Shown here one piece after another: positions 1,562 through 23,860 of a DNA stretch of 38,566 nt. Positions within the stretch are counted from its first letter, which is position 1, and each line of letters opens with the position of its first letter. The notes under the pieces are model-generated. The model was not told the origin of the DNA, did no database searches, and saw only the letters and a list, made by a program, of their open reading frames with translations. Source of the stretch: Candidatus Parabeggiatoa sp. nov. 2 (lineage in GTDB: Bacteria; Pseudomonadota; Gammaproteobacteria; Beggiatoales; Beggiatoaceae); contig NBMI01000153.1 of the NCBI GenBank assembly GCA_002085445.1, positions 1-38,566 of the forward strand, written 5' to 3'. A program made the translations under genes and the position numbers.

Positions 1562-4500
1562 ATGCCATTATTTGGTAAAGCCAAGAAAACTCAAGAAAAC
1601 GCGGCCGAGAAAAAGCCGAACGGCCGCGAAGCGGCCAAAGAAGCGAAGAAGAAAAAACCCGTGGGCAAACACGATGGCCGCATTGCGCTATTCGGATGCC
1701 GTGCCGCGGGTAAAACCGTCTATATTGGTTCACTTTTCCATGAATACCATGGCCGTGCGTCGGGCCTTGATGTCACTTTTCTGGGTGATCGAAGTGCCGT
1801 CTATCTGGCTGATCTGCAAAAGTCCATTCTGGCTTCCCCAAGAACTTGGCCGGCACCGACTGTGGTTGAAAATGAGGTGCGTTTAAAACTGGAGCTTGAG
1901 AGTGCCTTAGCCACCTCTTCACCAAAGGTTAATCTACAACTGTTTGATCCGCCCGGCGAGTGGTTAGCACTCGGTGGTGACGAACAAGCGGCCCCCGATA
2001 AACAAGGAGGCGCAAAAGCCATGCGCGACTTTGTGGCGGAGGCTGATGGAATATTTTTCTTTTTTGAGCCAGACAACTTTGCCTTCAAAGTGTTGCGCGG
2101 CAAAATCAAAAAGGCGCTCCCGGAGCTCCAGAAGTGGGAACAAGACGTTGATGAACGGCTAGGCCTTCTGGTAACCGCATTAAAAGAAAATGCGGATAAT
2201 CTTTTAGTACCATTGCAATCGGAAAACTTTCTGGTTCCGTTAGTGGAAAAAGACGATCAGGAGGAGATGGTTCGTGAGGTTGACGGGATTTTGAGTGGTG
2301 CTGAGGCAAATAGAGATTCACTGCTAAAAGGCCTGTTTCGGGACGCGGAGTTAAAGTATCTGCTCAGAAAGCATGAACTGAATGTCGAGCCAATCCTAGC
2401 GAATGCCCAAGAAATCAGCCAGACTCGCACACCCACTGGTAAAGCGGTTGATGTACTGTTTCGCATTATTGAGCTGATCCAAGAAAGTGCGGCTAGTGAA
2501 GACAAGGAGAGTGAGACCAAATTGTTGCAGAACATCGAGTCCTATTTTCGGATCGAAAGTAACAATCGCTTGATGGCCGCAGTGACGCGACTTCAGGAAA
2601 TCAGTAAGAAGGCCGAAGAAGACTCTACGGCCGAAAACCGTTCTATTGCCGTGATCATCGCTAAAGCTGATGAACTGGATGTGTTTCGCCAATCCCCCGA
2701 CCGGCCTTATGTGCTGATTCCGCCTCATTTGGAACACCTGAAATTCAAACAGGGCCCGGATCGATTGGATAACCTCCGAGATGCCTTGAAAAGCTATTGG
2801 GAAAAGCAAGATACCCGTTGGGGTTCTATTATTGATCAGCTCTTGACGGGGCCCTTCAAAAGCTTGTTTCTCAAGCTCATGAGCTTTCCTGGCGATTTTC
2901 AGATTTTCTTTGTCTCCGCCGTCGGGGAAGCTAAACGCGATAAGAACGGCTTTATGCAACCGCCCCAAGGTGAGGACGCGTTTAAGCCAGCGGGGGTTGA
3001 TAAACCGGTACTTTGGACGGCCCAGCAGATTTATAGTCATGCCATGATATATCGGGCGATTCGCCGCATGCTTCGCTGGGCCATTTTGCCCATTGTTCTG
3101 CTCTTGATCCCGGCGGCTCTATTTACCTATAATGCCTTATTTCAATCGGCGCTGGAGCGGGAAACTGATCCGACACTTCAAACGGCGGCCACTCAGTCCT
3201 ATAAGTGGTTAGTGAGTCTGCCTATGCCACCCAAGGCGGCTGTGACAACACGTATTGCGTTTTTGGATTTTAACCAAAAGTGGGCCGCGTACCAGCAACA
3301 AGTCGGTGATCTGTTTTCACGCCCAGATAAACGCCCGGATGAGGCACTTGAACAGGCACTGGCCCAATTAGAGCTTCTCATCCAAGGCAGCACCGGCCTC
3401 GTTCATACCGTGGCCCAACACCAAGATTCCTTGCGTACCGATGCGGCTCGCTTGGAGAATACGTTGCGCCAACCTGAGCGGCTGCGGTTGCACATTCTCT
3501 ACGCCAATTTCATGCTTAACTGGCTAAGAGACCATTTTGACAGCAGTTGGGCGGTTGACGATTCGGCGTTAGAGGCCCATCTGAAAACGCTTCGAGCATC
3601 AGTCGACAAGTTGCGCTACCAGTTAAAGGCCACCCCCAAGGAAGTCAGTTTATGGCCTACTTTGGAACAGGCGATAGCGCAATTGCAACTTCAGGAAATC
3701 GTCTTTCGCTTAACACCGATTCGTTCACAACTGGCCGAATTGGATAAGCAATACCGTCGCTCTCAAGGTTGGTTTTTACCCGAATGGAGTGCCGATGAAC
3801 CGACTGCTCCGAAAAACATCGAGGCCTTGCTGCAACAGGAAAAGGCGGTAAAGCACTTACATAACAAATTGGCGACGATAAAAGCGTTGTTTTCCGAGGT
3901 TAAGCCAAACCTACAACGCGTTTCTGCACTCAAGGAACGCCTGGTTAAACTCCAACAGTCTCAGGCCCAAACCCAAAAACAAGTTGAACAGTTGGCAGCA
4001 AGTATCCAGGTAGAATACACCCACCTTCTGGCGTGGCAAAAGTACAAGGAACTCCAGAACCGCTTAGAAGAACTCAATCTGACGGGTAGCCAAAATGAGA
4101 TAGCCTCTCTACTGACTCAAGCAGAGGAAGTGTACAAACTCGCCGCCGGCAAGATTGTTTCCGGTAACGTGATGAAAATCGCCCAAGGAAAAGCGCGTGC
4201 GCTCCAGAAAATGCAGCAAGCGATTTCTTCGGCGATTGTTGCCCTTAAGAACTACCAACAAAATGGGGTGCCGATGAAGTTTAGCTTTACTAACCCGCTT
4301 GCGATTACGTTGTCGGTGCCATTGGCCGATGGCCGGGAACAGACGCTGCCAAAAGGCCAGTCATTCCGTTGGTTGCCTACGCTGCCTTTACCAATGGTTT
4401 TAATTGCTAACGCCTCGGATATTGAACTGCCAGTTGCGCCACTGATGGTGCCGGGTGACTTTAAGAAAGATATACTCATCAAGGTAACCGGCCAAAACCA

Positions 4501-4588
4501 AACGCTCATTCTGCTGGATACTTGGATGAGCTATGCCGAAGCCTTGGAATCCGTCTTGGTGCCCTACGATGGGGCATGGATTCATTAG
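1562..4588 (+). CDS. Large P-loop NTPase (GTPase-like motifs) with a predicted membrane segment and a long C-terminal coiled coil; function unknown
   Basis: Strong RBS agaggagg. Lys-rich N-terminus. Walker A/G1 is GCRAAGKT, followed by a DPPGE (DxxG, G3-like) box, an AKAD (NKxD-like) box and SAVG. A hydrophobic helix AILPIVLLLIPAALFTY lies near aa 500. The remaining ~450 aa are heptad-rich, Q/L/E/K-rich sequence. Confidence 0.8.
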   Translation: MPLFGKAKKTQENAAEKKPNGREAAKEAKKKKPVGKHDGRIALFGCRAAGKTVYIGSLFHEYHGRASGLDVTFLGDRSAVYLADLQKSILASPRTWPAPTVVENEVRLKLELESALATSSPKVNLQLFDPPGEWLALGGDEQAAPDKQGGAKAMRDFVAEADGIFFFFEPDNFAFKVLRGKIKKALPELQKWEQDVDERLGLLVTALKENADNLLVPLQSENFLVPLVEKDDQEEMVREVDGILSGAEANRDSLLKGLFRDAELKYLLRKHELNVEPILANAQEISQTRTPTGKAVDVLFRIIELIQESAASEDKESETKLLQNIESYFRIESNNRLMAAVTRLQEISKKAEEDSTAENRSIAVIIAKADELDVFRQSPDRPYVLIPPHLEHLKFKQGPDRLDNLRDALKSYWEKQDTRWGSIIDQLLTGPFKSLFLKLMSFPGDFQIFFVSAVGEAKRDKNGFMQPPQGEDAFKPAGVDKPVLWTAQQIYSHAMIYRAIRRMLRWAILPIVLLLIPAALFTYNALFQSALERETDPTLQTAATQSYKWLVSLPMPPKAAVTTRIAFLDFNQKWAAYQQQVGDLFSRPDKRPDEALEQALAQLELLIQGSTGLVHTVAQHQDSLRTDAARLENTLRQPERLRLHILYANFMLNWLRDHFDSSWAVDDSALEAHLKTLRASVDKLRYQLKATPKEVSLWPTLEQAIAQLQLQEIVFRLTPIRSQLAELDKQYRRSQGWFLPEWSADEPTAPKNIEALLQQEKAVKHLHNKLATIKALFSEVKPNLQRVSALKERLVKLQQSQAQTQKQVEQLAASIQVEYTHLLAWQKYKELQNRLEELNLTGSQNEIASLLTQAEEVYKLAAGKIVSGNVMKIAQGKARALQKMQQAISSAIVALKNYQQNGVPMKFSFTNPLAITLSVPLADGREQTLPKGQSFRWLPTLPLPMVLIANASDIELPVAPLMVPGDFKKDILIKVTGQNQTLILLDTWMSYAEALESVLVPYDGAWIH

Positions 4589-4592
4589 CAGT

Positions 4593-4812
4593 GATCAGTG
4601 ATCAGAAGTCCAAACTTTAGTTTGGCCGGAGTCCAAACTTTAGTTTGGCAGTATTAAGTACAACGAATTACGCGGATAAACGAATTGAGATTGGGAGAGT
4701 TTGGCAGTCAGTATTAAGTACAACGAAACGCAGTGGCGGAACGCCTATTACGCGGATAAACGAATTGAGATTGGGAGAGTTTGGCAGGAGTCCAAACTTT
4801 AGTTTGACAGCG
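4593..4812. repeat. Composite repeat block: REP-like palindromes (GGAGTCCAAACTTTAGTTTGG) flanking two copies of the dispersed 'GTACAACGAATTACGCGGATAAACGAAT' element
   Basis: Hairpin tccaaactttagtttgga at 4631..4648 and 4790..4807; family-B units at 4651..4707 and 4711..4787. Confidence 0.85.
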
Positions 4813-5104
4813 CCAGAGGCTGTTTGGCAGTGCCAAGTTAAAACCTGTTACCCGTCAATAGAACATTGACAGAGTATTAGGATGGGTTTGGGGTAAAAAT
4901 CACCGAATAAAAATGGCCTCCATAAAATATGGCAAGCATGAAAATTGCCTTTTGCAACAAGACTTTATTTATCAATACGATATAATTGTTATGATTTTAT
5001 TGAGCGAATGAAGAGGTACAAAGCTGGTAATCAACATTTTAAGGGATGAGAAATCCGATTTTTTCCTAAAATCGGATTTCTTTTATTAATAAATAGGAGA
5101 AAAA

Positions 5105-7351
5105 ATGAGCATCAAGAAGCTTGAATTGTTTCTAGCCATATCGGGGGGCGTTGTGTATTGGCAAACCCCCGGGCTGAAGGGGCATAAAGGGTTGATAAAC
5201 TCTGTTGATGAGCCTATTCAGTATGGCCTTGATTTGAGAGATAACCGAGGCGTGTTTGCTACTTTTAACCATCTTATCAACGGTGAACACTATGTTTCGC
5301 TCACCTGCGGTGTGCTTGGGAAAGATGATAGAGGAAGGTCGGACGCGCCCTATCGGTTTTATGCCGTTTTGCCGTGGGCGATTTACCAAGAACTGGGGGC
5401 CGATGCTTTTGCGTTGGCTCGTTGGGCGTTTAGTAAGGAAGTACTGGGCCGAAGATATGGGAACACCAAAACGGAGGAAGAGGGCGAATTATTTTCGCCT
5501 CAGGTCTATAAATATTTTTCGCCTATCAAGGCGGATCCTCAGCCTGATCTGAGTTTCCTGAGAAGGCAGTTGCCTGATGAAGAGCGATTGGGGCAGTTTT
5601 TAGGGGCATTGATTGCGGGTGTGGCCCCACCACTGCGTTTTCGGGACGAGGGATATGCCGGCCAATGGTCTTCTTATGATCCTTGGAGTAACCGGATACC
5701 GACGAATGGAGAGCGCTTATTAGAAGAACTCTATTTGTGTCTGCCTTATGAAGTACGCTCATGGTGTAATATTTCAACGGCTTGGAAACGGTGTGATAGT
5801 GAGAAGTTTCCGTTTCAGTTGGCATTGGATGGTGAATCTTCGGAGAATGCCGCAGCAGCTTTAGCACGGGTCGTTGATGGCATGGCGGAAGTGGCCCAGC
5901 GCAAGGCCCAAACGGTGGTCAAACAGTATGTTACGCCGCTGTTTCAAGCCATCGCGAAGAATGACGATAAACGCATTAATCAGTTGCGCCGCACTTTTAC
6001 GCTCCAGTCGATCAGTTGGCCGTCTGCACCTAAAACCATCGCTCGCACTGGGGGGGGTGTTCGTGGTGAGTTTAAGCAAGCGCCTACCAGTGCGAGTGCT
6101 CAGAGTTGGATGGCTTTGGTAAAGCATCCGCTTGTGATTGGCGCGGTGGTTGTGGCGTTGGTTGGTGGCTTTGGAATGGGTGGAAGGTTGCTTTCTTCCA
6201 AAGATGGCTTGGAAGAGATAACGGCTCAATTAGAGAAGTTACAGAATGAGCGAAATAGTTTTGAAACTCAATTAACTGAGTTACAAGGTCAATTTCAGCC
6301 GGTTAAGCAAAAGAGGGATGAGTTACAAAAGGAGTTGGATGAGACAAAGGGTGAAATCGACTCTCTCACGGGGCAAATTGCCACTTTGGAAAAAGACAAG
6401 ACTTTGTTAACGCAAGAACTGGCTAGAATCAAGAGTGACAAAACTGGAAGCGACAACCTGAACAAAGCATACGGTGAAATTACTAGGTTGAAAACGGACT
6501 TAGGTAACTGCGAAAAGGAAAAGGGCAACTTGACTGAACAATGCAAAACGGACAAGGGCAACTTGGCTCAAAGCGTGGCAAAAAAGAGTCAAGAATATAA
6601 TGTCTTGGTTTCGGACTTAGACACATGCAATACGGCAAATGGCTACTTGGGTCAACAATTGGTTCAATGCGGAGGTGAAAAGGACAACTTGGCTCAAAGC
6701 GTGGAAAAAAAGAGTCAAGAATATAATGTCTTGGTTTCGGACTTAAACATATGCAATACGGACAAGGGCAAATTGGCTCAAGACGTGGCAAAAAAGAGTC
6801 AAGAATATAATGTCTTGGTTTCGGACTTAAACATATGCAATACGGACAAGGGCAAATTGGCTGAACAATGCCAAACGGACAAGGCTAATTTGACTCGACA
6901 ATGCCAAACGGACAGGGACATTAACCTTAAGGGCTGGAAGTTAATCGTCACTTCTGGCAGTGACTCTAAGAGAAATTCACTCTCTGGAAACATTCCGAGA
7001 AAAGGGTTCCTTATTCTAAGAAGGAATGTCTCTGAGACAGAACCGAGAGTTTCACTAGAACACAGGAAGGGCGCTACCTTTGATGGGATGTTATGGAATG
7101 AAGGGAAAAAGGGTAAAAATAAAGCGTCATTGATATTGAAGGACAGGAACAACGAGATCGTTGATCAAGTTGATCAATGGTATGCTGGTAAAAACGACGA
7201 CAAACGTACCATGGAACGAAAACGCCCTGATGTTGGTGGGAATGATCAAGAAAATTGGTGTACTGCTTCAGGGTATAATTACAATTGGCGTGATGATAAT
7301 TCTCCTTACGATACGGGTACACCCGGCAGTCGGAATACCTGTGCTGAGTAA
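5105..7351 (+). CDS. Membrane protein with an N-terminal cytoplasmic domain of unknown function, one TM helix, a coiled coil with in-frame 27-aa tandem repeats, and a C-terminal lamin-tail-like (LTD) domain
   Basis: RBS aataggag. TM helix LVIGAVVVALVGGFGMGG. Three 81-bp repeats at 6697..6860 encode LAQSVxKKSQEYNVLVSDLNICNTDKGK. The C-terminal segment KGWKLIVTSGSD...GFLILRRNVSE...GMLWNEGKK...ASLILKDRNNEIVDQVDQW matches the LTD fold pattern (GW-L, a conserved W-N-G pattern and a D-x-V-D pattern). Confidence 0.8.
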   Translation: MSIKKLELFLAISGGVVYWQTPGLKGHKGLINSVDEPIQYGLDLRDNRGVFATFNHLINGEHYVSLTCGVLGKDDRGRSDAPYRFYAVLPWAIYQELGADAFALARWAFSKEVLGRRYGNTKTEEEGELFSPQVYKYFSPIKADPQPDLSFLRRQLPDEERLGQFLGALIAGVAPPLRFRDEGYAGQWSSYDPWSNRIPTNGERLLEELYLCLPYEVRSWCNISTAWKRCDSEKFPFQLALDGESSENAAAALARVVDGMAEVAQRKAQTVVKQYVTPLFQAIAKNDDKRINQLRRTFTLQSISWPSAPKTIARTGGGVRGEFKQAPTSASAQSWMALVKHPLVIGAVVVALVGGFGMGGRLLSSKDGLEEITAQLEKLQNERNSFETQLTELQGQFQPVKQKRDELQKELDETKGEIDSLTGQIATLEKDKTLLTQELARIKSDKTGSDNLNKAYGEITRLKTDLGNCEKEKGNLTEQCKTDKGNLAQSVAKKSQEYNVLVSDLDTCNTANGYLGQQLVQCGGEKDNLAQSVEKKSQEYNVLVSDLNICNTDKGKLAQDVAKKSQEYNVLVSDLNICNTDKGKLAEQCQTDKANLTRQCQTDRDINLKGWKLIVTSGSDSKRNSLSGNIPRKGFLILRRNVSETEPRVSLEHRKGATFDGMLWNEGKKGKNKASLILKDRNNEIVDQVDQWYAGKNDDKRTMERKRPDVGGNDQENWCTASGYNYNWRDDNSPYDTGTPGSRNTCAE

Positions 7352-7364
7352 GTAATAACGATGA

Positions 7365-8137
7365 AGAGTACAACGCAACTTCGTTAAGGAACGCCCATAA
7401 CGAGATAGACGAATAAAACGACATTGCTCAATTCGTTTATCTTGCAATATGCTTGCGGAGCAAACCTGAATGGGTTCCTACGCAGAACGTCAATGCTAAG
7501 CCAGGGGCGTTGCCCTTGGCTATATTAATATCGCCCAAAGCCCAAACAAAGCCAGGGGCGATGCCCCTGGCTATATTAATCTCGCCCCGTTGGGGCTCAG
7601 TTCCAAGGGCGATGCCCCTGGCTATATTAATCTCGCCCTGTTGGGGCTAGAAAGGTAGCTGCGAAGTTTCGTTGTACTTTTCGTCATTCGTTTATCGGCC
7701 CGTAATTCCTACTATCATTCGTTTATCGGCCCGTAATTCGTTGTACTATCATTCGTTTATCCGCGTAATTCGTTGTACTAAGTACCGAAGCACATATTAT
7801 CAGGTATTTTGCAGGAATCAAAAGGGCTTTGCACGTGGGCTTGTAAGGGCTTTGCACGTGGGATTGCCCCTACGAACCGTCGTGTCATGTAGGGGCAATC
7901 CTTTATGGTTGCCCCTTTGGCCCACAATTTTGTACGGTCACAAATTGCGCGTTTGTCATTTCGGTTTCTTTGAACGGAAAAATCTTGATAAATCTTGATA
8001 AATCTTGATAAATTAAAGTTTGGACTTCTGCCAAACTCAAGTTTGAACGACTGCCAAACTAAAGTTTGGACTCCTGCCGACGACTGCCAAACTAAAGTTT
8101 GGACTCCAGATCAGTGATGAGTAAGTAATAACGATGA
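7365..8137. repeat. 773-bp intergenic block made only of repeat-family units: family B, ccaggggc hairpin triplet (7495..7650), family E hairpin element (7826..7917), (AAATCTTGAT)x3 (7978..8009) and REP-like palindromes (8011..8112)
   Basis: Every sub-unit recurs elsewhere in the window. The block is bounded by a 24/25-bp direct duplication (7341..7365 and 8114..8138). Confidence 0.8.
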
Positions 8138-9363
8138 AAAATAACCCTAACAATTGGTTTGAACTACTATTCGAGGTGAAACCATGGCAAGATGGCATGG
8201 CCCTTTCCGACCGTTCCTTACACGAACACGAAGCCCAACAAGTCATTTTAGCCCGTCTTTATGGCGCAGTTCGTTGGGGAAAAGACTGTTTTGGGCTGCA
8301 CCCAGCCGGAAAACTGATCTCAACATGCCAACAAGTTGATGACCAAACCTGGGAATACCAACTGACAGAAGCCATTGCCATCACAATCACCGGGCAAATC
8401 TTAGTGTGTGGGCCATGTCAACAGACACTCTCGTTGGCTGACAGGGGCCTATTGGTTGCGGTACCGATTGAACAAGAATCACTGCCAGCGGCCCTTTGGT
8501 ATCGAGCGGAAATAAAATTCTATCCAGAAGACGAAGCCAACGCACTTAGACAAGGCGTTCCGATAGCTCGTTGGCTAGGAGAAGAAGGCCTAGACGAAAA
8601 CTACCTTCCTCCCGCGATGAGCTTGGGTGCCCATCCCCATCTATGGCAACAAGCGACAGCGATAGCCGAGTGCATTGAACGGATATTGGAGCAAGTCACG
8701 GTACCTAATCCATGGTTGCTCAATGTTTGGGTTCCGTCTGGTGATGAAGAACGCCTTATGGCGATGCCCCCAATGGAATGGTTATGTCTCCATCTGCGTA
8801 GCCTTCGGGGATTAGCCTCACAAGACAAATTACGTCCCTTAATAAAACACCTTGAACATGTCCAGAAAAAACCGTTATCACTATTAAATCTAACCGAAGG
8901 CGTGAAAGACATAAAAACCGCTTGGGAAATAGTAGAAGCACGATTGCCCGAAGGAATAACCATCAAAACAGACAAAGGGCTTTTTAAATCAGTTAAACTA
9001 CCCATAGAAAGAGAACGTTGTTTGGACAAATCCCAATGTATTGTCATCACTATTCCACCGGAACTGAACAACACGCCCTTACTACTTGCCGTACCTACCA
9101 CACTTTACAAGAGTGAAGAACTTAATGATCCTAAAAAATGGGCAATCAACCTAAATAAACCGTCAGAAAGTGGCCGAGGCTATCACAACAACAGAAGGCT
9201 TAATTTCTTCCAAAAGACGGCCGTTAACAAGGAAGAAGCCTACTGGGTTTGTGAACTACCGCGTCCGCTCACGATAGTCAACCATTATGGCATACTCACA
9301 CTCCTTGCCAACGTAGATGATCTCAACGAACTAGTAGTCTGTCAGGAGTCCAAACGACGCTAA
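8134..9363 (+). CDS. Hypothetical protein, 409 aa, no recognisable domain
   Basis: Long ORF with sensible composition, flanked by REP-like elements and a strong downstream terminator hairpin. Confidence 0.6.
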   Translation: MKNNPNNWFELLFEVKPWQDGMALSDRSLHEHEAQQVILARLYGAVRWGKDCFGLHPAGKLISTCQQVDDQTWEYQLTEAIAITITGQILVCGPCQQTLSLADRGLLVAVPIEQESLPAALWYRAEIKFYPEDEANALRQGVPIARWLGEEGLDENYLPPAMSLGAHPHLWQQATAIAECIERILEQVTVPNPWLLNVWVPSGDEERLMAMPPMEWLCLHLRSLRGLASQDKLRPLIKHLEHVQKKPLSLLNLTEGVKDIKTAWEIVEARLPEGITIKTDKGLFKSVKLPIERERCLDKSQCIVITIPPELNNTPLLLAVPTTLYKSEELNDPKKWAINLNKPSESGRGYHNNRRLNFFQKTAVNKEEAYWVCELPRPLTIVNHYGILTLLANVDDLNELVVCQESKRR

Positions 9364-9405
9364 AGTTTCGCTCCGCGAAACTTTAGCGTCGTTTTTAGTT
9401 TGGCA
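9364..9405 (+). terminator. Rho-independent terminator-like hairpin
   Basis: cgacgctaaagtttcgc-tccgc-gaaactttagcgtcg (15-bp perfect stem) followed by tttttag, directly after the stop of 8134..9363. Confidence 0.7.
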
Positions 9406-9905
9406 GTATTAAGTACAACGAATTCCGCGGATAAACGAATTGATATTGGGAATTACAATCTGTTTGCGGAGCAAACCTGAATGGGTTCCTACGCAGAGCG
9501 TCAATAATTAATGATTAATGATTAATGATTAATGATTAATGAATTAAAGAATAGTTAACTTGTTGTTTTTAAAATAATAAAACTGAAGCGGAATAAAAAT
9601 TGGATCAAGTTTTAGAACCAAAGGAACCTCCTTTTCATCACCCCAGGAGGAGCGTGAAAATACCCATAGATTTTTTTTAACGTTTTTCATTTTGTGTGGG
9701 TATTTTATTTAGCCACAACTCCCTTAGTAGTGTTTGTAGTGTTTGTAGTGTTTGTAGTAGGCTTGTAATTGCCTTAACGAGATTAAGTTGCTAAAGCAAC
9801 TACTGCAAACAAGCAAGATTAAGTTGCTAAAGCAACTACTACAATCGTCATTCGTTTATCCGCGTAATTCGTTGTACTATTCATCATTCGTCTATCCGCG
9901 CTTCT
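9404..9905. repeat. Composite intergenic repeat block: family B units (9404..9455, 9845..9905), the tgcggagcaaacctgaatgggttcctacgcag repeat (also at 7445..7493), (TAATGAT)n, (TAGTGTTTG)x3 and two copies of gattaagttgctaaagcaactact
   Basis: Direct string matches to other loci in the window. Confidence 0.8.
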
Positions 9906-9969
9906 GTCATTGTACTACTTTAATCTTCATTTTTCATTTTTCATTACTATACCGATGAGGAGGACTCCG

Positions 9970-11592
9970 ATGCAAAACCTATTCAAGTCCTTGATTTTAT
10001 TGTTAACGCTAGCGATTTTGGTGAACGGTTGTAGTACGGAAAGTCCGCTTGTCAAAAGCGTCGCCTCACCTGGGCATGTTCCATCTTCGGGAGATGCAGA
10101 TGGATTTCTCATTGTGGACTGTCTCTTGCCTAGCCAAGTGCGTCAGTTGGAACCGGGTACCATTTCTCTTACGCAGCGCCGCCCCATTAAAACTTCTATC
10201 TCGGACTGTGAAATTCGTGGCGGCGAATATGTAGTTCAGGATCGTAGTGATTATGCCGCTGCCTTAAAAGTGTGGCTTGCCAAAGCCAAAGCTGGTGATC
10301 CCAAAGCCCAAACCTATGTCGGTGAAATTTATGAAAAGGGTTTGGGTGTTCCACCCGATTACGAAAAGGCTGCCCAATGGTATCAAAAAGCGGCCGCACA
10401 GGGATATGCCAGCGCCCAAATGGATTTAGGCTTTTTGTATGAAAGAGGCCTTGGAGTCAAACAGGATTCTGCGATGGCCGAAAAATGGTATCGTCAAGCT
10501 GCGGAATTAACCGAAGAGGCCGATATCGAGCTTGTTGCACCTACCCAGAGTAGCAACGAATGCGAAGAAGTCGCGCGTTTACGCCAAGAGCTAGAAGAAA
10601 CCAAACCGCTTGTTGCACCCGTCCAGAGTAGCAACGAATGCGAAGAAGTCGCGCGTTTACGCCAAGCGCTAGAACAAACCAAACAAAAAGTGGCCGAATT
10701 GCAAAATAAACTCCAAATGCATGAACGTGGCGCAAAACGGCGGCACTCCAAGAACAAGCGGCGAGAGACTGGCTCAAACAAGTTACCGTTGGGAACTTAC
10801 CACGCCTTGATCATTGGCAATAACCAGTACCAACATTTGTCGAAATTAAAAACGGCCGTCAATGATGCCAAGGTAGTCGATGAGTTGCTCAGAACACGTT
10901 ATGGCTATAAAACGACGGTGTTGCTGAATGCGAATCGCTATCAAATCCTTAATGCACTCAACCAATTACGCCAGCGCCTGACTGAAAAGGATAATCTGCT
11001 GATTTATTACGGTGGGCACGGTGAATTGGATGAAGTCAATCAGCGTGGGCACTGGTTGGCAGTGGATGCCGAACCGGACAGTACCGCAAATTGGATTTCC
11101 AATATAACCATCACAGACATACTTAACACGATGAGTAGCAAGCATATTTTAGTCGTATCGGACTCTTGCTATTCAGGGACAATGACGCGCTCGTCGCTGA
11201 CGCGCTTAGAAGCGGGGATGACACCAGAAAAACACCTTAAATGGATAAAGAAGATGTTAAAGAAACAGTCGCGCACCGCATTAACGTCTGGTGGTATCAA
11301 GCCGGTGTTAGACACCGGTGGTGGACAACATTCCATTTTTGCCAAAGCGTTTATAGACACTTTGGAAAATAATACTGAAATCATGGCCGCTTACAAGGTA
11401 TATCGACAAGTGGCGGCGTTGGTGAATGATGCGGCGGCGGCAACTCGTTTTGATCAGGTGCCAGAATATGCGCCAATCCGGTATGCTAAGCATGAAGCCG
11501 GAGAATTTTTCTTTGTGCCGAAGGGGGCATCCACCAAAATAGCTGTTTTGGGCACTGATGCTGGAGTCCAAACCTTTAGGTTTGGGCTTTAA
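9970..11592 (+). CDS. Lipoprotein with Sel1/TPR-like repeats, a duplicated 26-aa linker repeat and a C-terminal caspase-like (peptidase C14) domain
   Basis: Preferred start ATG 9970 after RBS gaggagg; the longer ORF from 9910 lacks an RBS. Signal peptide plus lipobox LLLTLAILVNGC. Three Sel1-like repeats. Caspase core ALIIGNNQY...NDA...LLIYYGGHGE (catalytic His-Gly) ...KHILVVSDSCYSG (catalytic Cys). A 78-bp in-frame duplication at 10530..10690. Confidence 0.85.
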   Translation: MQNLFKSLILLLTLAILVNGCSTESPLVKSVASPGHVPSSGDADGFLIVDCLLPSQVRQLEPGTISLTQRRPIKTSISDCEIRGGEYVVQDRSDYAAALKVWLAKAKAGDPKAQTYVGEIYEKGLGVPPDYEKAAQWYQKAAAQGYASAQMDLGFLYERGLGVKQDSAMAEKWYRQAAELTEEADIELVAPTQSSNECEEVARLRQELEETKPLVAPVQSSNECEEVARLRQALEQTKQKVAELQNKLQMHERGAKRRHSKNKRRETGSNKLPLGTYHALIIGNNQYQHLSKLKTAVNDAKVVDELLRTRYGYKTTVLLNANRYQILNALNQLRQRLTEKDNLLIYYGGHGELDEVNQRGHWLAVDAEPDSTANWISNITITDILNTMSSKHILVVSDSCYSGTMTRSSLTRLEAGMTPEKHLKWIKKMLKKQSRTALTSGGIKPVLDTGGGQHSIFAKAFIDTLENNTEIMAAYKVYRQVAALVNDAAAATRFDQVPEYAPIRYAKHEAGEFFFVPKGASTKIAVLGTDAGVQTFRFGL

Positions 11593-11655
11593 AAATCCTC
11601 TAAAAGTACTGATGCTGGAGTCCAAACCTTTAGGTTTGGATTCGCCAAAGCTAAA
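11557..11655. repeat. REP-like palindromic units (CTGGAGTCCAAACCTTTAGGTTTGG) x2 that overlap the 3' end of the caspase gene
   Basis: Hairpin ccaaacctttaggtttgg twice; same family as 4631, 8018, 21592 and 23755. Confidence 0.85.
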
Positions 11656-12734: not shown

Positions 12735-13187
12735 ATGGATGGTTTGGAAATTCTCATTTTTCTGTTTTTGCTTATACTTGGTTATTTCTCAGGGACTTAC
12801 TTTGAGAAACGCCATTATAAAAGTATCCGAGAGCGAGAGCGTAAAACGCTGCATGTCCCCATGGTGACTTTCGGCGCTAAGCAGTCATTGCCAGAGGCGC
12901 AAGATGCCCAGTTGTTTGTTGGCAGTGTTGTCATTTCGGTTGACTACTTTAAAATGATTTCGGCCACGTTGCGAAATTTAGTCGGAGGCCGAGTCATGGT
13001 TTATGAAAGTCTGCTAGATCGAGGGCGTAGAGAGGCCCTGTTGCGGATGAAGGAGGAAGCGATGGCGTGGGGTGCTAATCAAATTATGAATGTGCGGTTG
13101 GAAACCGCCGCGATAGGGGGCCGCTCAGGTAATAACAGTGGCCCAGGTTCGGTTGAAGTGATTGCGTATGGCACGGGAATTCGTTAG
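12735..13187 (+). CDS. Membrane-anchored YbjQ-like (DUF74) protein
   Basis: N-terminal TM helix LEILIFLFLLILGYF, then a second DUF74-like domain (SATLRNLVGGRVMVYESLLDRGRREALLRMKEEAMAWGANQIMNVRLE). Start is 3 nt after the upstream stop. Confidence 0.75.
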   Translation: MDGLEILIFLFLLILGYFSGTYFEKRHYKSIRERERKTLHVPMVTFGAKQSLPEAQDAQLFVGSVVISVDYFKMISATLRNLVGGRVMVYESLLDRGRREALLRMKEEAMAWGANQIMNVRLETAAIGGRSGNNSGPGSVEVIAYGTGIR

Positions 13188-14075
13188 ATGTTCATAAGAT
13201 ATAAACAACCGAAAAAACCGCCTGAAGGAAACGTAATTAAGCACAGTCCACTGCTTAATTTTGCCTATTTGTTGGGCACGGTGGTAATCATCAGTGCAGT
13301 GATTTTCGTGGCGCTAGGATTTTTCGCGGATTGGCTGGCTGTCAGGATAAGTCCTGAAACAGAGCGCAAAATTGGTGATATGTTGTTCCACACCATTTCA
13401 GACGAAGAAATTGTGGACGACAAGCGTATCCAATATCTTGAGGAACTCTTGGAGTCCTTGCCTGAATCAGGAGAAACGACTCGTCTGCCCTTGACGATTC
13501 ATTTAATTAAGAGTGATGTCGTCAATGCCGCCATTATGGCGGGGGGACATGTTTTCATTCATACGGCGCTGCTGGAGGCGGTGGAATCGGAAAATGAACT
13601 GGCTTTTGTGCTGGCACATGAATTGGGGCATTTTCAAAACCATGATCCCACCAAAAGTTTAGGGCGTTCACTGGTTTTTCTTGTGGCTTCAATGGCACTC
13701 GGCATTGGCACATCGGAATCCGGGGGGGTGCCGGATATTGTTTTTCGGACTGGAGAACTGACCAGTCTGAGCTATAGTAGAAAGCAAGAAAGGGCGGCTG
13801 ATCTTTATGGTTTGTCTAGGGCCATTAACCGCTATGGACATGGAAGCCATAGCCTTGATTTCTTTAAGCGGCTTGAAGAGGAGGAACAGGAACAAGGGCG
13901 CTTGCTCAAAGTGTCTCAATATTTCTCAACTCATCCCCTGAGCAAGGATCGGATCGTCATCCTCAACAAGGCCGCGGCCGAAAAAGGATGGAAAATGGAA
14001 GGAGATGCCAAGCCTTTGCCAGAATGGTTGCATTGTCCAAATATGGAAGAATGCGAGCCGGACGCGGAGGAATAG
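13188..14075 (+). CDS. M48-family zinc metallopeptidase (HtpX-like), membrane-anchored
   Basis: HEXXH motif in FVLAHELGHFQNHD. N-terminal TM helix. The start overlaps the upstream stop (TAGATG). Confidence 0.8.
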   Translation: MFIRYKQPKKPPEGNVIKHSPLLNFAYLLGTVVIISAVIFVALGFFADWLAVRISPETERKIGDMLFHTISDEEIVDDKRIQYLEELLESLPESGETTRLPLTIHLIKSDVVNAAIMAGGHVFIHTALLEAVESENELAFVLAHELGHFQNHDPTKSLGRSLVFLVASMALGIGTSESGGVPDIVFRTGELTSLSYSRKQERAADLYGLSRAINRYGHGSHSLDFFKRLEEEEQEQGRLLKVSQYFSTHPLSKDRIVILNKAAAEKGWKMEGDAKPLPEWLHCPNMEECEPDAEE

Positions 14076-15902: not shown

Positions 15903-15999
15903 AATGTACACCGCACATTTTGGGCTAAATGCAGCCCCATTTTCTATCCTAAATGTACACCGCACATTTTGGGCTAAATGCAGCCCCATTTTCTATCAC
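15903..15999. repeat. 49-bp tandem duplication x2 that includes the exeA start codon and its first 15 codons
   Basis: ctaaatgtacaccgcacattttgggctaaatgcagccccattttctatc occurs twice in tandem; only the second copy is in frame with the gene body. Confidence 0.9.
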
Positions 16000-17554
16000 G
16001 CCTGATCCACATTACCTCTATTTAAGTGTACGCCACCGCGAGGCCTTGGCGCATTTGTTGTATGGTGTCAACGAAGGCCCCGGTTTTGTGTTGCTCACTG
16101 GCGAAGTCGGCACGGGTAAAACAACGCTGTGTCGTAGTCTGATTGAACAACTTCCTGATACGGTCGATGTCGCGTTGTTGCTCAACCCGCGACTGACGCC
16201 TGTGGAGTTGTTGGCGGCCTTGTTTGATGAGTTAAGAATTAGCTACGACTCACAATATACCCTCAAAGATTTTCTTGACACACTCAATAGCTATTTACTC
16301 ACGGCCCATGCCGTAGGTCGTCGCACGGTACTTATCATTGATGAGGCACAAAATCTCAGCGCCGATGTGCTAGAACAAGTACGGTTATTGACCAATCTGG
16401 AAACATCGAGCCACAAACTGTTGCAAATCATTTTGGTGGGTCAACCTGAGTTAAGTAGGTCACTGAAACGCAATAATCTTCGCCAGTTGGCACAGCGCAT
16501 TACGGCGCGTTATCACCTGTTGCCCTTGTCTGCAAAAGATACCCAAGCTTATATCAATCATCGTTTAGCGATAAGTGGTGCTAAAAACCCCTTGTTTACA
16601 GATGCTGCTATGCGTCTCGTCTATCGCTATTCCAAGGGTGTGCCTCGTTTGATTAATATCATTTGTGATCGCGCCTTGTTGGGCGGATATGTCAAGAATG
16701 AGGAACAGATAGATACCCATACCGTCCGTAAAGGGGTACAAGAGGTTCGTGGCGAGAATATCAAGCGGTATTCGCCACTCGGCTGGCTAACCGGTTTGCT
16801 GGCAACCGTTTTGCTCGTTGGTGCGTTGATGTGGTGGTGGTTTCCTCCCGGCGAAGTGCCGTTGTTTGAATCTTTGTTTGAAAATTCTGCCACACCGCCG
16901 CAGGCAGAGTTATCTTTGTCATCGCACGAAGACATCGCTCCTCCTACTGAGCCAGCCAGCCCTGCAGCCCAGCAAACACCGCCGCCGACACCCGATTTGT
17001 TGAGCCTGTTGGAAAAGACCAGTACGGAATTGGCCTTTGTCACGTTGTTTGGTTTCTGGGACTTGGACTATACCAGCTTGGCGGGGAATAAAGCCTGTCA
17101 ACGTGCCGCGACGCAAGGGTTAGCGTGTCTATTAAGAACCGGTACTTGGGACGAACTTCGCCGTTTCAATCGCCCGGCCGTGATTGAATTAGTGACCAAT
17201 GAGGGCAAACAATATCATTTGGTTGTAGCACGCTTGCAAGGCGACACAGCTAGCTTGGCGATTGGGGGAGAGAGGTTTGAGTTTTCCAGCAGCGAAATTA
17301 ATAGATATTGGCTAGGACAATTTTTACTGCTTTGGCAACCACCGATGTTGCCAGTCCCGGTGATGAGAGCTGGCATCAGCAATGAACGCAGCGAGCCCCA
17401 TTTGTTATCACCGCGTTTTGATCGTGTGTTGAGACGACGAGTCATCCTGTTTCAGCGCAAACAACGACTGGCTCCCGATGGCATTGTCGGGGAGCAAACG
17501 ATGTTGGCGTTACAAGCGTTGGCCGGAGGAGGGCCGGTACTAAATCCCCCCTAA
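15953..17554 (+). CDS. exeA: ExeA/GspA-like AAA ATPase with C-terminal peptidoglycan-binding domain
   Basis: N-terminus MYTAHFGLNAAPFSITPDPHYLYLSVRHREAL; Walker A GEVGTGKT; Walker B LIIDEAQ; TM helix near aa 280; C-terminal PG_binding_1-like LAPDGIVGEQTMLALQAL. Confidence 0.85.
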   Translation: MYTAHFGLNAAPFSITPDPHYLYLSVRHREALAHLLYGVNEGPGFVLLTGEVGTGKTTLCRSLIEQLPDTVDVALLLNPRLTPVELLAALFDELRISYDSQYTLKDFLDTLNSYLLTAHAVGRRTVLIIDEAQNLSADVLEQVRLLTNLETSSHKLLQIILVGQPELSRSLKRNNLRQLAQRITARYHLLPLSAKDTQAYINHRLAISGAKNPLFTDAAMRLVYRYSKGVPRLINIICDRALLGGYVKNEEQIDTHTVRKGVQEVRGENIKRYSPLGWLTGLLATVLLVGALMWWWFPPGEVPLFESLFENSATPPQAELSLSSHEDIAPPTEPASPAAQQTPPPTPDLLSLLEKTSTELAFVTLFGFWDLDYTSLAGNKACQRAATQGLACLLRTGTWDELRRFNRPAVIELVTNEGKQYHLVVARLQGDTASLAIGGERFEFSSSEINRYWLGQFLLLWQPPMLPVPVMRAGISNERSEPHLLSPRFDRVLRRRVILFQRKQRLAPDGIVGEQTMLALQALAGGGPVLNPP

Positions 17555-18064: not shown

Positions 18065-19801
18065 CTATTTTTTAGTTTTGTTTTTCGGTGGCGTTTGTTT
18101 GGATGCCAATTTCAATGGTATCCCCAAGTGTTCTGCAACCGCCTGCAATTTTGCCTTGTCGATAAGCCGTCTGAGCAAATCAAACTCGTTAGTCAAGTTG
18201 CGAACTTCTTGCTTTTGACGCAAGAATTCTATTTCCTGTTCTTGCTGGGCCATTTTCACCCGATGGTTGGCTTCTTCTATTTCCAGTTGCGCCTTGTTTT
18301 CTTGTTGTTGGCGCGATAGGCGGGCTTCTAACGCTTTAGCCTCAACCAAGTCGTCTTGCTCTTGAGTCAGTAATTTGAGCGCGGCGGCTTGTTTTTTGAG
18401 TGTTGTTTCCCGTTCCAGTTGCAACTGTTCTGCCTGCATTTTTGCCTCGTTCATGCGGCTTTCTTCGGCTATGGCATGTAACGTTTGTTCCGTTTGCAAG
18501 GTTTTTTGCTTGTTGTTGGTTTCATTGTCCAGTTTGGCTTGTTCTAGTTCCTTTGCCTGTTCCTGTTGCAATGTCGCTAACTGATTTTCGTATGCCAGAC
18601 GCGCCTGTTGGGCTTGGAGTCGTTGTTCCGATGTCTGCCTAGCGAGGGCAGTTTGTTCTTCCAGTTGAATCTTATGCTGGGCTGTTTCTTGTTCTTGTGC
18701 TTGAATTCGCAACTGTGAGGCTTGCTTGGCGAGGGTGGTTTGTTCTTCCAGTTGGAGTTTCGTGCGGAATGTTTCCTGTTCTTTGTTAAAACGGACGGCT
18801 TCTTCGGCTAATTTTAACTGGAAGGCTTCGGTTTGTTTGCTTTGCTTAACCTGCTCAATGGCCGCGTTGGTTTCCGCTTCACGGGTTTCTTTTAGGTGGC
18901 GACTTTGGAGTTCCTTGTTGTGAATTTCATTTAGCATGGTTAAGCGACTAATGCGGGCCGCTTGTTCTTGTTGATGACGAAAAGGGGCCTGTAAGTCTTG
19001 CCAAAGCTTTTGCGAGCTGACGTATGCTTCTCTAATCTGGACGGTGACAATTTTAATGCCCAAGCCTTCGTGGGTGACACTGTCTTCGTGATTACGACTT
19101 TCTGTCACGGCCTCAATGCGTTTGGTGAGTTCTTCGATAATGGGGGCTTTGTCGGTTAAAACCTCTTCCACACTCATGGTGGCAATTTTATCTTTGATAG
19201 CGGCTTCGGCTTGTTCACCCAGTTGGGCGTTGACTATGCCAAGGGGATCGCGGCTGTCTGAGAAATCCAATTTGCGGTAAGCAATTGAAAAGTCTGATAT
19301 TTGCCATTGTAAGTAGGCCAGCATATTGATGCCTTGTTTTTCTTGAGTAATGCACCTTGCTACGATACCAATGGTTTGCATGGCAGCAGGTACCACTAAG
19401 TAGGCATCGGTGTTGGGGTTGTAGCGAAAAGATTTTCCTAAGCCAATCGTCACCGGGGCACCGCGCCCTAAGCGCGTATGAACGACATACGCATTGGGAG
19501 GAATAAGAATCCGTTTCCAGCGCCAAAAGCCGGTTTCACGGATTTTTATCGGTTCTTTTTCCAGTTGTAGTTCTTCGGAGGTAACGAGGTTGCCTTGTGG
19601 TGGTTGGTTTGATGAAGTGGACGTTGGGGAGAGGTTTGCGTTAGAAACGGAAGAGTTGTTAGCTTCTTCTTCTGCTCCAATTCCTTCGTCACCAAATTCA
19701 AAAGAGAGTTCTTCGTCAGCACTTTTTTCCATCGCTTCCATCTTTACACGGGTATTGGCTTGACGATTAAATGCTTCGGCGGCTGAGATACGTTTTAACA
19801 T
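18065..19801 (-). CDS. Flotillin-like SPFH/Band-7 domain protein with a long Q/E/A-rich coiled-coil C-terminus
   Basis: SPFH core FWRWKRILIPPNAYVVHTRLGRGAPVTIGLGKSFRYNPNTDAYLVVPAAMQTIGIVARC; flotillin-type EA/Q-rich heptads; RBS aggaagg upstream on the minus strand. Confidence 0.8.
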   Translation of the reverse strand: MLKRISAAEAFNRQANTRVKMEAMEKSADEELSFEFGDEGIGAEEEANNSSVSNANLSPTSTSSNQPPQGNLVTSEELQLEKEPIKIRETGFWRWKRILIPPNAYVVHTRLGRGAPVTIGLGKSFRYNPNTDAYLVVPAAMQTIGIVARCITQEKQGINMLAYLQWQISDFSIAYRKLDFSDSRDPLGIVNAQLGEQAEAAIKDKIATMSVEEVLTDKAPIIEELTKRIEAVTESRNHEDSVTHEGLGIKIVTVQIREAYVSSQKLWQDLQAPFRHQQEQAARISRLTMLNEIHNKELQSRHLKETREAETNAAIEQVKQSKQTEAFQLKLAEEAVRFNKEQETFRTKLQLEEQTTLAKQASQLRIQAQEQETAQHKIQLEEQTALARQTSEQRLQAQQARLAYENQLATLQQEQAKELEQAKLDNETNNKQKTLQTEQTLHAIAEESRMNEAKMQAEQLQLERETTLKKQAAALKLLTQEQDDLVEAKALEARLSRQQQENKAQLEIEEANHRVKMAQQEQEIEFLRQKQEVRNLTNEFDLLRRLIDKAKLQAVAEHLGIPLKLASKQTPPKNKTKK

Positions 19802-21591: not shown

Positions 21592-21774
21592 ATTGTCCAA
21601 ACCTAAAGGTTTGGACTCCAAGCTTTGGACAACACAATCAATCAATTGTCCATTGGAGTCCAAAGCTTCAGCTTTGGACAACACAATAAATTGTCCAAAC
21701 CTAAAGGTTTGGACTCCAGCCAAGACATTGGAGTCCAAAGCTTCAGCTTTGGACAACTTAGAGAGGAATTCATG
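21592..21774. repeat. REP-like palindrome cluster (tandemly duplicated ~97-bp unit carrying ccaaacctttaggtttgg and ccaaagcttcagctttgg hairpins) between hynS and isp1
   Basis: Strings read directly; the duplication unit begins inside the hynS stop region (acaacaataaattgtccaaacc...). Confidence 0.85.
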
Positions 21775-23738: not shown

Positions 23739-23749
23739 TTTCTTTGGCA

Positions 23750-23860
23750 GCCAACAGCACAGGAGTCCAAACTTTAGTTTGGCAGTCGTCCAAACTTTAG
23801 GCATCGTTTAGCTAAAGCCTACTAATAGTGCCCTTTAGGGTACTTTAGCTTTAAGCCTTA
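23750..23860. repeat. REP-like palindromes (ggagtccaaactttagtttggcagtcgtccaaactttagg) and an agtgccctttagggtact hairpin unit between isp2 and hynL
   Basis: String matches to the REP family and to the hairpin family seen at 14385. Confidence 0.8.

Follow-up and report, generated by a model that had tools for sequence, protein, structure and literature searches.

The analysed window (38,566 nucleotides of 'Candidatus Parabeggiatoa sp. nov. 2', contig NBMI01000153.1) carries a gene for a 1008-aa protein, hereafter GTPase2, which is followed by two further genes of the same operon and preceded by a toxin-antitoxin pair. The features of these genes are listed below, with residue conservation counted over 54 sequences.

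354-1005, + strand: BrnT toxin gene (354-731; PF04365, 2.7e-27) and putative antitoxin gene (751-1005)
1562-4588, + strand: whole GTPase2 gene, open reading frame for a 1008-aa predicted bitopic membrane GTPase
1673-3076, + strand: N-terminal region, predicted to be cytoplasmic (aa ~38-505): a Ras-like G domain carrying helical insertions, plus a long juxtamembrane helix
1694-1717, + strand: G1/P-loop GCRAAGKT (aa 45-52); G45, G50 and K51 invariant
1946-1960, + strand: G3/Walker B DPPGE (aa 129-133); G132 invariant, D129 nearly invariant
2081-2626, + strand: helical insert specific to the clade (aa ~174-355), separating beta4 from beta5
2660-2671, + strand: G4 AKAD, a variant of [NT]KxD (aa 367-370); K368 and D370 invariant
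2897-2926, + strand: G5 region FQIFFVSAVG (aa 446-455); Q447 invariant, F449, F450, S452 and G455 nearly invariant
3080-3148, + strand: single predicted transmembrane (TM) helix, N-in (aa ~507-529; Kyte-Doolittle peak 2.21)
3149-4264, + strand: helical rod, probably periplasmic (aa ~530-901), of differing length among orthologues
4268-4585, + strand: predicted C-terminal domain (aa ~903-1008), rich in beta strands (model residues 409-489) and including two short helices
5105-7351, + strand: coiled-coil/LTD gene, next in the system, for a 748-aa bitopic protein
8134-9363, + strand: TssK-like gene, 409 aa (FCB TssK-like HMM, E 5.8e-7)

Identical copies of the 1008-aa protein occur in MAGs of 'Candidatus Parabeggiatoa sp. 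nov. 2', and its orthologues share ~70% identity. Word-indexed homologue searches reached 12-13 proteins, and an exhaustive profile search was used for the wider family; a metagenome scan returned 4 loci. GTPase2 displays the sequence hallmarks of the TRAFAC class (G1 GxxxxGK[ST], G3 DxxG and G4 [NT]KxD), and its DPPGE box aligns to the YcjX motif DYPGEWL. The glutamate after the Walker B glycine (DxxGE, as in PF19993) is present as E133; it is not universal across the clade, being replaced by G in four sequences (P0008-P0011) and by D or K in FCB members. In most relatives the G4 box reads TKAD, within the consensus (V)ITKAD.L.GF. The initial annotation had proposed a GTPase-like protein with its G boxes in order, and this was borne out, the key residues of G1, G3 and G4 being invariant or nearly so. 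We have also looked at the opposite case, a known ATPase family with misassigned 'G' boxes, and found instead an N-domain with a predicted Ras-like alpha/beta fold, whose structural neighbours are YcjX and the small Ras, Rab and Rag GTPases.

In Pfam, GTPase2 matched PF19993 (DO-GTPase2) with 38.7 bits as full protein and 41.3 bits as N-domain alone (cutoff 27), the match covering profile positions 3-158 of 226 and ending at the insert. This family was defined by Kaur, Burroughs, Iyer & Aravind 2020 (PMC7159879); thus, the protein does not represent an undescribed family, as had been suggested, while 'conflict-associated GTPase' is a fair description of PF19993. The N-domain alone also matched PF04317 (YcjX-like, DUF463; 30.3 bits vs a cutoff of 25), and the PDB sequence of YcjX matched GTPase2 over the same part (E-value 2e-4). 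PADLOC and NCBIfam returned nothing for GTPase2. Sequence comparison and structure prediction together show a putative bitopic inner-membrane GTPase of the YcjX/DO-GTPase2 lineage of TRAFAC GTPases; by the same predictions, GTPase2 is a genuine GTP-binding switch protein, of a family that is catalogued but uncharacterised.

One reading of the YcjX likeness would be that GTPase2 is a YcjX orthologue-like GTPase of an envelope or phage-shock-type stress response, fused by chance to a membrane tail. We consider this very unlikely. The Pfam match is confined to profile positions 2-120 of 443, and Foldseek, despite a probability of 1.0 against YcjX, gave a TM-score of only 0.25-0.29 (~0.27 to whole YcjX). 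Moreover, the deposited YcjX chains (PDB 6NZ4/6NZ5/6NZ6; PF04317) have ~450-485 residues and no counterpart of the TM helix and ~480-aa tail of GTPase2, and the gene context of YcjX is different. A membrane-remodelling role of the bacterial dynamin kind, to which the initial annotation had likened the layout, is extremely improbable. GTPase2 is, as bacterial dynamin-like proteins are, a large membrane-associated GTPase, with helical regions and a membrane segment, but the dynamin likeness was rejected on its structural neighbours, which are those named above, and on the missing dynamin-type G domain, stalk and paddle.

The distance between G3 and G4 is 239 aa in GTPase2 vs 74 aa in its nearest relatives. 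The profile aligns to the FCB relatives in two separate stretches, positions ~140-330 being left out, the occupancy analysis placed a gap at aa 174-331, and the region is all-helical in the predicted model. The wide spacing is a clade-specific helical insert of ~165 aa. The TM helix is flanked by charges of +4 on its N-side and -2 on its C-side (N-in orientation), and most relatives have a TM helix at the equivalent place. The tail that follows is predicted to form spectrin-repeat-like helical bundles and then a ~100-aa beta domain, in which G902, F907, L917, W937 and P939 are conserved; because it lies beyond an N-in TM helix, it is probably periplasmic and not a cytoplasmic stalk. The C-termini of the FCB proteins show a similar motif pattern, but hhalign of the GTPase2 tail against the FCB tails gave only 35% probability. 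The large G3-G4 insertion, the single membrane segment and the long helical tail noted initially are all real.

We have examined the neighbourhood of the orthologues, as had been advised, and the main context was an envelope operon of several genes, three of whose families also occur in type VI secretion system (T6SS) clusters. GTPase2 is one gene, in the 3' part, of this conserved operon. Read in order, the operon encodes a 2TM protein, a protein of 472-516 aa, a paralogous GTPase with a tail anchor, two 'F6' proteins that are likewise tail-anchored, GTPase2, a bitopic coiled-coil(/LTD) protein and, often, one that is TssK-like. BrnTA, Uma2 and repeats split it in this organism, so that only its last three genes lie in the window. 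A compact version with overlapping genes (176-472-GTPase1-F6a-F6b-GTPase2-CC) is present at locus L075, with phmmer E-values of 1e-19 to 1e-141 against the Parabeggiatoa proteins; operon families are also found at L001, L006/L072 and L007, and protein P0007 is a natural fusion of an F6b-type protein and a GTPase. The paralogous GTPase (453 aa; PF19975 DO-GTPase1, 31.5 bits vs a cutoff of 27) adjoins the other genes in the compact L075 operon and is encoded here ~7 kb upstream, outside the window, on the longer contig L007. The F6 proteins have a single C-terminal TM helix, and the FCB F6 HMM matched the 286/298/289-aa operon proteins with E 1e-9 to 5e-8. A conserved eight-gene envelope operon, all of whose products are annotated as hypothetical, is thus defined in giant sulfur bacteria.

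The 748-aa product of the gene downstream of GTPase2 has a ~330-aa cytoplasmic N-domain, a TM helix (aa 334-363) and a coiled coil rich in repeats, and it weakly matches the lamin-tail domain. It is 44% identical to g830 of L001, the LTD is precomputed for homologues, and such homologues follow GTPase2 at L004, L075 and L078; the protein shows repeat-number polymorphism. The profile of the TssK-like family matches solved TssK structures (5y0e at 6e-9), and the 409-aa ORF itself gave weak direct matches to PF05936 and TIGR03353. The TssK-like gene holds the same position at L001 and in Desulfamplus (L081), where the order GTPase2, one gene, TssK-like gene is seen again. Genes 3' of the operon core differ by lineage, being either the TssK-like gene or a helical protein and an FGE-sulfatase. 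The BrnTA pair that had been pointed out upstream is indeed present, as an incidental neighbour: here (L007) it separates the F6b gene from GTPase2, at L004 it is upstream of F6b, and at L001, L006 and L075 it is absent. For this variable position and frequent absence we have rejected it as a functional partner and judged it an inserted mobile module.

Profile comparisons show the TssK-like, F6 and GTPase families to be homologous to three consecutive genes that, at loci of ~40 FCB-group species, come after tssB-C-hcp-vgrG-tssE-F-G (FCB GTPase HMM vs GTPase2, E 1.3e-34). One such locus, L041, contains TssC (1e-70), Hcp, VgrG, gp25/TssE and TssG (4e-18), and among those of its ORFs that were scanned with Pfam and NCBIfam neither TssJLM nor TssNQOPR was recognised; NCBIfam has no model for the FCB GTPase, F6 or F7. 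The position of the FCB F6 and GTPase genes after tssK is what we take to be that of tssL-tssM in canonical tssK-tssL-tssM clusters, and TssL is tail-anchored, as the F6 proteins are. The F6 family profile had no match among solved structures, so the comparison of F6 with TssL is one of topology and gene position only. Near GTPase2 itself, no T6SS core, sheath or tube genes were found. In the literature searched, neither a GTPase associated with T6SS in FCB phyla nor a T6SS in Parabeggiatoa turned up, T6SS being reported for Ca. Thiomargarita magnifica only.

In overall plan GTPase2, as predicted, resembles TssM/IcmF: a P-loop NTPase on the cytoplasmic side precedes a TM helix and a large helical part in the periplasm, which ends in a small beta domain. 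The FCB relatives of GTPase2 stand two genes after a tssK-like gene in T6SS clusters, with a tail-anchored protein between. A (V)ITK.D..GF strand is common to the GTPase family and a TssM-like protein and is the only stretch that aligns; hhalign of the G domain against that protein gave 20% probability. PF14331 (IcmF-related_N) matched 24 of the 54 relatives weakly (best 9e-5), GTPase2 itself had no match to PF14331, PF06761, PF06744 or TIGR03348, and no TssM-type periplasmic fold was found in it. To our knowledge, two kinds of T6SS membrane complex have been described: TssJLM and, in Bacteroidota, TssNQOPR. The latter, which belongs to T6SS-iii (Bongiovanni et al. 2024, PMC10781749), sets a precedent for T6SSs of the FCB group that do without TssJLM and rely on different membrane proteins. 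It differs from the present case in that no GTPase or P-loop protein is described among TssN, Q, O, P and R (PMC10781749), and in its topologies, with one N-terminal TM helix each in TssQ, O and P and five TM helices in TssN. Because the relatives lie in T6SS clusters where, among the ORFs scanned at L041, the usual membrane anchor was not seen, GTPase2 could well be a GTP-controlled, envelope-spanning anchor analogous to TssM. This is the reading that we prefer, while holding it at a little under even confidence.

The Pfam assignments also suggest a different role, in which the DO-GTPase pair would be the switch of a GTPase-centric conflict system as conceived by Kaur et al. 2020, acting against invaders or through programmed death and gating variable effectors or sensors after envelope sensing; the gated components would be the caspase, FGE-sulfatase-domain proteins and perhaps the TssK-like protein as a phage-RBP-derived sensor. 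Both GTPases exceed their family cutoffs, and two paralogous GTPases per system, the Walker B DxxGE and frequent membrane anchoring with domains beyond the C-terminal TM helix, in membrane-proximal architectures, are features described for such systems (PMC7159879). The lineage-dependent genes 3' of the core, a Sel1-caspase gene two genes downstream in this species and the multicellular filamentous host would also fit. However, the defining partners were not detected in any neighbour: no GAP1 (N1/N2-M-C) Pfam family appeared in the neighbouring ORFs of the window, L001, L006, L007, L075 and L078 (E up to 0.1-1) or in precomputed Pfam lists, and no GASH-domain or FNIII-repeat component in Parabeggiatoa-type loci (Pfam, E up to 0.1-1). 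In other species no caspase is conserved beside the operon, for which we have rejected it as a core component, and the closest large set of relatives is found inside T6SS structural clusters, not beside effectors. In addition, GTPase2 lacks the N-terminal zinc ribbons of DO-GTPase systems, carries the helical insert in its G domain and has F6, TssK-like and CC/LTD proteins as partners. The text of Kaur et al. 2020 mentions no T6SS, IcmF, TssK or YcjX (PMC7159879). We regard a conflict role as fairly unlikely.

The rods of GTPase2 and of the CC/LTD protein might alternatively form a GTP-regulated periplasmic lattice independent of any injection machine, e.g., at cell-cell junctions, in sheath attachment or in gliding of the filament. 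The spectrin-repeat-like rod, its variable length among orthologues together with the repeat polymorphism of the CC/LTD protein, and the lack of contractile genes nearby are all compatible with such a scaffold. Yet it would leave the recurrent TssK-like and F6 partners and the T6SS synteny of the relatives unexplained, and nothing positive points to a lattice, making this quite improbable.

As a TssM-analogous anchor, GTPase2 would bind and hydrolyse GTP through its cytoplasmic G domain, probably paired with the paralogous GTPase in a heterodimer and touching the cytoplasmic domains of F6. Its nucleotide state would control the docking of a TssK-like trimer on the cytoplasmic face, while the TM helix and rod would cross the periplasm and bring the terminal beta domain to the wall or an outer-membrane partner. 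In Parabeggiatoa the docked machine may be a contractile apparatus of T6SS type whose genes are elsewhere, or a different machine. More broadly, and only tentatively, GTPase2 and its ~730-aa FCB relatives might constitute an undescribed kind of T6SS membrane-complex subunit, with a single-pass YcjX/DO-type GTPase and a tail-anchored F6 replacing TssL-TssM in a T6SS variant of Ignavibacteriales, Zixiibacteriota, Krumholzibacteriota and GN15. Giant sulfur bacteria and Desulfamplus would then have a 'double GTPase' derivative, duplicated and bearing the insert, which would anchor a TssK-type baseplate protein to the envelope, possibly without a contractile sheath. If true, this would be a third T6SS membrane-complex solution, built on a bona fide GTPase, and would connect nucleotide switching with baseplate docking in a way open to direct testing, a connection that is not settled even in the case of TssM and its Walker A domain. 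The 'double GTPase' conflict families, which were defined computationally, and YcjX, a stress GTPase still unexplained, would likewise be tied to a concrete machine.

A 473-aa family encoded upstream was rejected as part of the system, being an independent two-gene module that occurs in unrelated contexts. Near it, at L072, lies a pair consisting of TssK and a TssM-like-NTPase-FGE-sulfatase.

The GTPase gene and the two genes following it, both conserved with it, lie in the window as listed below:

1562..4588, plus strand: GTPase gene, an ORF with an ATG start encoding 1008 aa
5105-7351, plus strand: 748-aa bitopic coiled-coil protein (CC/LTD) in which an N-domain of ~330 aa and a TM are combined with a repeat-rich coiled coil and a weak lamin-tail-domain match
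8134-9363, plus strand: 409-aa TssK-like protein

The ORF limits and protein length are exactly those of the initial annotation. An identical protein, annotated as hypothetical, was found in "Candidatus Parabeggiatoa sp. nov. 2" MAGs, and related metagenomes contained orthologues with ~70% identity and remoter relatives with 25-42%. The four G boxes initially named were all there, in the right order:

aa 45-52: G1, GCRAAGKT
aa 129-133: G3, DPPGE
aa 367-370: G4, AKAD
aa 451-455: G5, VSAVG

Since they are conserved in an alignment of 54 relatives, these boxes are no chance matches. Invariant positions were G/G/K of the P-loop, the glycine of G3, K and D of G4, and Q447; D129, F449, F450, S452 and G455 were nearly so, and the Walker B glutamate was lost in some orthologues.

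The AlphaFold model of aa 31-514, built on the 54-relative alignment, was confident (pLDDT 88.9, pTM 0.90). Its top Foldseek matches were the YcjX entries 6NZ4, 6NZ5 and 6NZ6 (E 6e-7 to 9e-6), with MglA and Rab proteins ranking below. YcjX was also the sole significant solved sequence relative of the N-domain profile (E 2e-4), the alignment taking in the P-loop, the "P.TWP..T...E" motif and D.PGEWL. The window protein matched PF19993 (DO-GTPase2) in Pfam with 38.7 bits vs. a cutoff of 27, and the isolated N-domain passed the YcjX-like PF04317 (30.3 vs. 25 bits) over the first quarter of that model only. Because the structure and profile matches are to YcjX and DO-GTPase2, the reservation that the G boxes might be misassigned in a known ATPase family falls away; Foldseek, profile and Pfam all indicate a GTPase. 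The family is not an undescribed one, as had been suggested, since DO-GTPases are already catalogued (PF19993; PMC7159879). Kaur et al. 2020 defined them as TRAFAC GTPases that carry a Walker B glutamate and are frequently paired with a paralogue and frequently membrane-proximal (PMC7159879). The window protein is a Pfam-recognised DO-GTPase2/YcjX-like GTPase, but its architecture and operon are undescribed. The dynamin relationship initially considered was rejected, as nothing in Pfam or among the structural neighbours supports it.

When 1.84 billion cluster representatives were searched exhaustively with a profile, 466 matched at E up to 1e-3 and just 11 below 1e-30. About 45 of the better matches were ~730-aa FCB-group relatives, aligning at profile positions ~9-140 and ~330-465. 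These two stretches are contiguous in the ~730-aa proteins, so the middle is absent from them, and residues 174-331 of the window protein were unoccupied in at least 70% of these relatives. From G3(D) to G4(K), the window protein spans 239 aa and its paralogue 218 aa, compared with 148 aa for a Parabeggiatoa protein of 702 aa and 74 aa for the ~730-aa relatives. Based on these differences in spacing and occupancy, the unusual distance is real and due to an all-helical, clade-specific insert between beta4 and beta5, which measures ~165 aa vs. the ~230 aa first claimed. The whole clade also has a further helical elaboration, located between G4 and G5. When one genome per species was scanned, the insert-bearing form was seen only in Parabeggiatoa, and the ~730-aa form in ~55 MAGs, mainly of Zixiibacteriota, Krumholzibacteriota, Ignavibacteriales and GN15.

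The single hydrophobic helix noted after the G domain was confirmed at aa ~502-529, following a long amphipathic helix, and nearly all relatives have a TM at the equivalent place. Its flanking charges (N-side +4, C-side -2) predict an N-in orientation, and therefore the tail beyond it should be periplasmic. The description of this tail as a heptad-repeat coiled coil was only partly right, because the rod is variable, with orthologue indels of ~100 to 350 residues, and ends in a beta domain. In the orthologue alignment, this terminal domain and the G domain are conserved while the rod length varies.

The 748- and 409-aa proteins were 44% and 65% identical to the products of the two genes after P0002, an orthologue of the GTPase on a 5.6-Mb contig. 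L007, a longer contig from this species, extends upstream of the window. Its genes encode, in order, a 516-aa protein, a 191-aa 2TM protein, a paralogous GTPase of 453 aa, a 286-aa protein, two Uma2 proteins, a 303-aa protein, BrnT, the BrnA-like product and finally the GTPase of the window (GTPase2). The paralogue matches PF19975 (DO-GTPase1, 31.5 vs. 27 bits) and has a C-terminal TM. The homologous locus L075, whose relative is 42% identical to GTPase2, is a compact operon of overlapping genes: a 176-aa 2TM protein, a 472-aa protein, the tail-anchored GTPase1 (452 aa), F6a (289 aa), F6b (285 aa), GTPase2 (882 aa) and a coiled-coil protein. Each one matched its Parabeggiatoa counterpart (phmmer E 1e-19 to 1e-141). 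Between F6a and F6b the similarity is weak (E 1e-5 to 7e-7), and each has one TM close to its C-terminus. In P0007, a natural fusion places an F6b-type protein at the GTPase N-terminus, which argues for physical contact between the two.

The genes 3' of the core differ, being TssK-like in this species, L001 and Desulfamplus, and a helical protein plus a TM-FGE-sulfatase protein in L078. Such variable genes, the Pfam family and the paralogue pair would fit a conflict switch of the type described by Kaur et al., as would the nearby Sel1-caspase gene and the multicellular host, and we give this rival explanation substantial weight. However, its defining partner components GAP1, GASH and FNIII were looked for among the neighbours by Pfam scans and not found, and Kaur et al. 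2020 discusses no T6SS, TssK, IcmF or YcjX (PMC7159879).

About 40 loci of the FCB relatives keep the gene order TssB-like, TssC (PF17541, 1e-70), Hcp, VgrG, gp25/TssE, TssF, TssG (4e-18), TssK-like (TIGR03353, 5e-15), F6 (308 aa, tail-anchored), GTPase and a 176-aa protein, with lipoproteins of CsgG/LpoB type on the opposite strand. The FCB GTPase HMM matched the window protein (E 1.3e-34), the F6 HMM the 286-, 298- and 289-aa proteins (1e-9 to 5e-8) and the TssK-like HMM the window 409-aa ORF (5.8e-7). The joint TssK-like family profile found solved TssK (5Y0E at 6e-9, also 6N38, 5MWN and 5M30). In many canonical clusters, genes for a tail-anchored protein and then an NTPase-TM-periplasmic protein come after tssK, in the order tssK-tssL-tssM. 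Homology to TssM was not established: IcmF-related_N matches were weak (24 of the 54 family members), and hhalign against a TssM-like protein gave 20% probability, with the G4 strand "ITK.D..GF" alone aligned. Genes for TssJLM or TssNQOPR were not recognised with Pfam and NCBIfam among the ORFs scanned in one FCB locus (L041), and no description of the T6SS association of the GTPase relatives was found in the searchable literature or NCBIfam. The Bacteroidota membrane complex TssNQOPR has no GTPase (PMC10781749).

As the most economical reading, by analogy to TssL-TssM, we propose that the GTPase/F6 pair may anchor a TssK-type baseplate protein to the membrane. Our confidence is moderate, because neither the window nor any Parabeggiatoa-type locus, out to 10 kb, contains a sheath, tube, spike or TssE/F/G gene. 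In this model, the G domain on the cytoplasmic side would switch between its GTP and GDP states, in double-GTPase operons probably as a heterodimer with the tail-anchored paralogue; loss of the Walker B glutamate in some orthologues would fit asymmetric dimers. Conformational changes in the helical insert and the juxtamembrane helix would gate the docking of the TssK-like trimer, and the rod with its final beta domain would cross the periplasm, alongside the CC/LTD rod, to a partner in the wall or outer membrane. A periplasmic scaffold of purely structural function is a possible alternative that leaves the TssK and F6 partners unexplained.

Conserved on the opposite strand of the FCB loci (e.g., L041:12790-19780, minus strand) are genes for an LRR protein, a 373-aa protein that is hydrophobic in an N-terminal segment, a pair of TPR/CsgG/LpoB-like lipoproteins and a PEGA-domain Ser/Thr kinase, all candidate outer-membrane and regulatory parts of this T6SS variant. 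A second "TssK plus membrane NTPase" pair occurs in the same island at L072:3810-8998 (contig Ga0187366_1116625), upstream of the P0004 orthologue. Its first gene encodes a genuine TssK homologue of 414 aa (PF05936). The product of the next gene, 1086 aa long, combines a TssM-like cytoplasmic region (TIGR03348 at 2.7e-15, PF14331) with a C-terminal FGE-sulfatase domain that replaces the TssM periplasmic domain.

The BrnTA module noted beside the GTPase gene is indeed adjacent, but incidentally so. It lies between the 303-aa gene and the GTPase in this species (L007), upstream of the 375-aa equivalent of the 303-aa gene in Parabeggiatoa sp. nov. 1 (L004), and is absent from L001, L006 and L075; from these shifts and absences we infer an inserted mobile module. 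The repeat-filled intergenic regions are likewise insertions that split an operon, since the same junctions in the related genome L001 measure 58 nt and -4 nt. Short palindromic MITE-like units, e.g., GGAGTCCAAACTTTAGTTTGGCAG and ATTCGTTTATCCGCGTAATTCGTTGTACTA, fill these regions:

window 4589-5104
window 7352-8133
window 9364-9909
window 11554-11639

A 71-nt unit is repeated with 96% identity (1426-1496 and 7844-7914). A perfect (TAATGAT)x10 array lies at 1020-1090, between the BrnA-like ORF and the GTPase gene, with a shorter copy at 9503-9548, after the TssK-like gene. Similar heptanucleotide arrays are known from large sulfur bacteria and cyanobacteria. The CC/LTD gene carries 84- and 126-nt coding tandem repeats (6495-6914), and its product, 748 aa here, has 769 and 797 aa on other contigs with a 100% identical GTPase, reflecting repeat-number polymorphism of a probably periplasmic rod.

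The 560-aa protein encoded at 9910-11592 carries Sel1 repeats and a caspase domain besides a hydrophobic segment at its N-terminus; it matched Peptidase_C14 at 6.7e-24 and, below cutoff, NCBIfam "caspase, EACC1-associated type". Its gene has a 78-nt x2 coding repeat at 10530-10684. Conservation of this Sel1-caspase downstream of the system is limited to this species. A 31-nt x7.6 tandem array (32372-32608) precedes the gene (32747-35017) for a 756-aa protein with an FGE-sulfatase domain (1e-56) at its C-terminus; no reverse transcriptase was seen in the window. FGE-sulfatase domains recur around the GTPase systems of L072, L073 and L078. The 578-aa ORF at 18065-19801 (minus strand) had no Pfam match at E 0.01; by eye, an SPFH/flotillin-like N-terminal part precedes a long Q/E/A-rich coiled coil, and the AT skew of the region is extreme (-0.45). 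The remaining genes look ordinary (12735-14075, 15953-17554, 20497-25639 and 26261-29923), and comprise YbjQ-like and M48 peptidase genes, a gene for one protein with AAA_22, GspA C39-like and peptidoglycan-binding parts, a cluster for the small and large subunits of a [NiFe] hydrogenase, and the gene for an MscS-family channel of 1220 aa.
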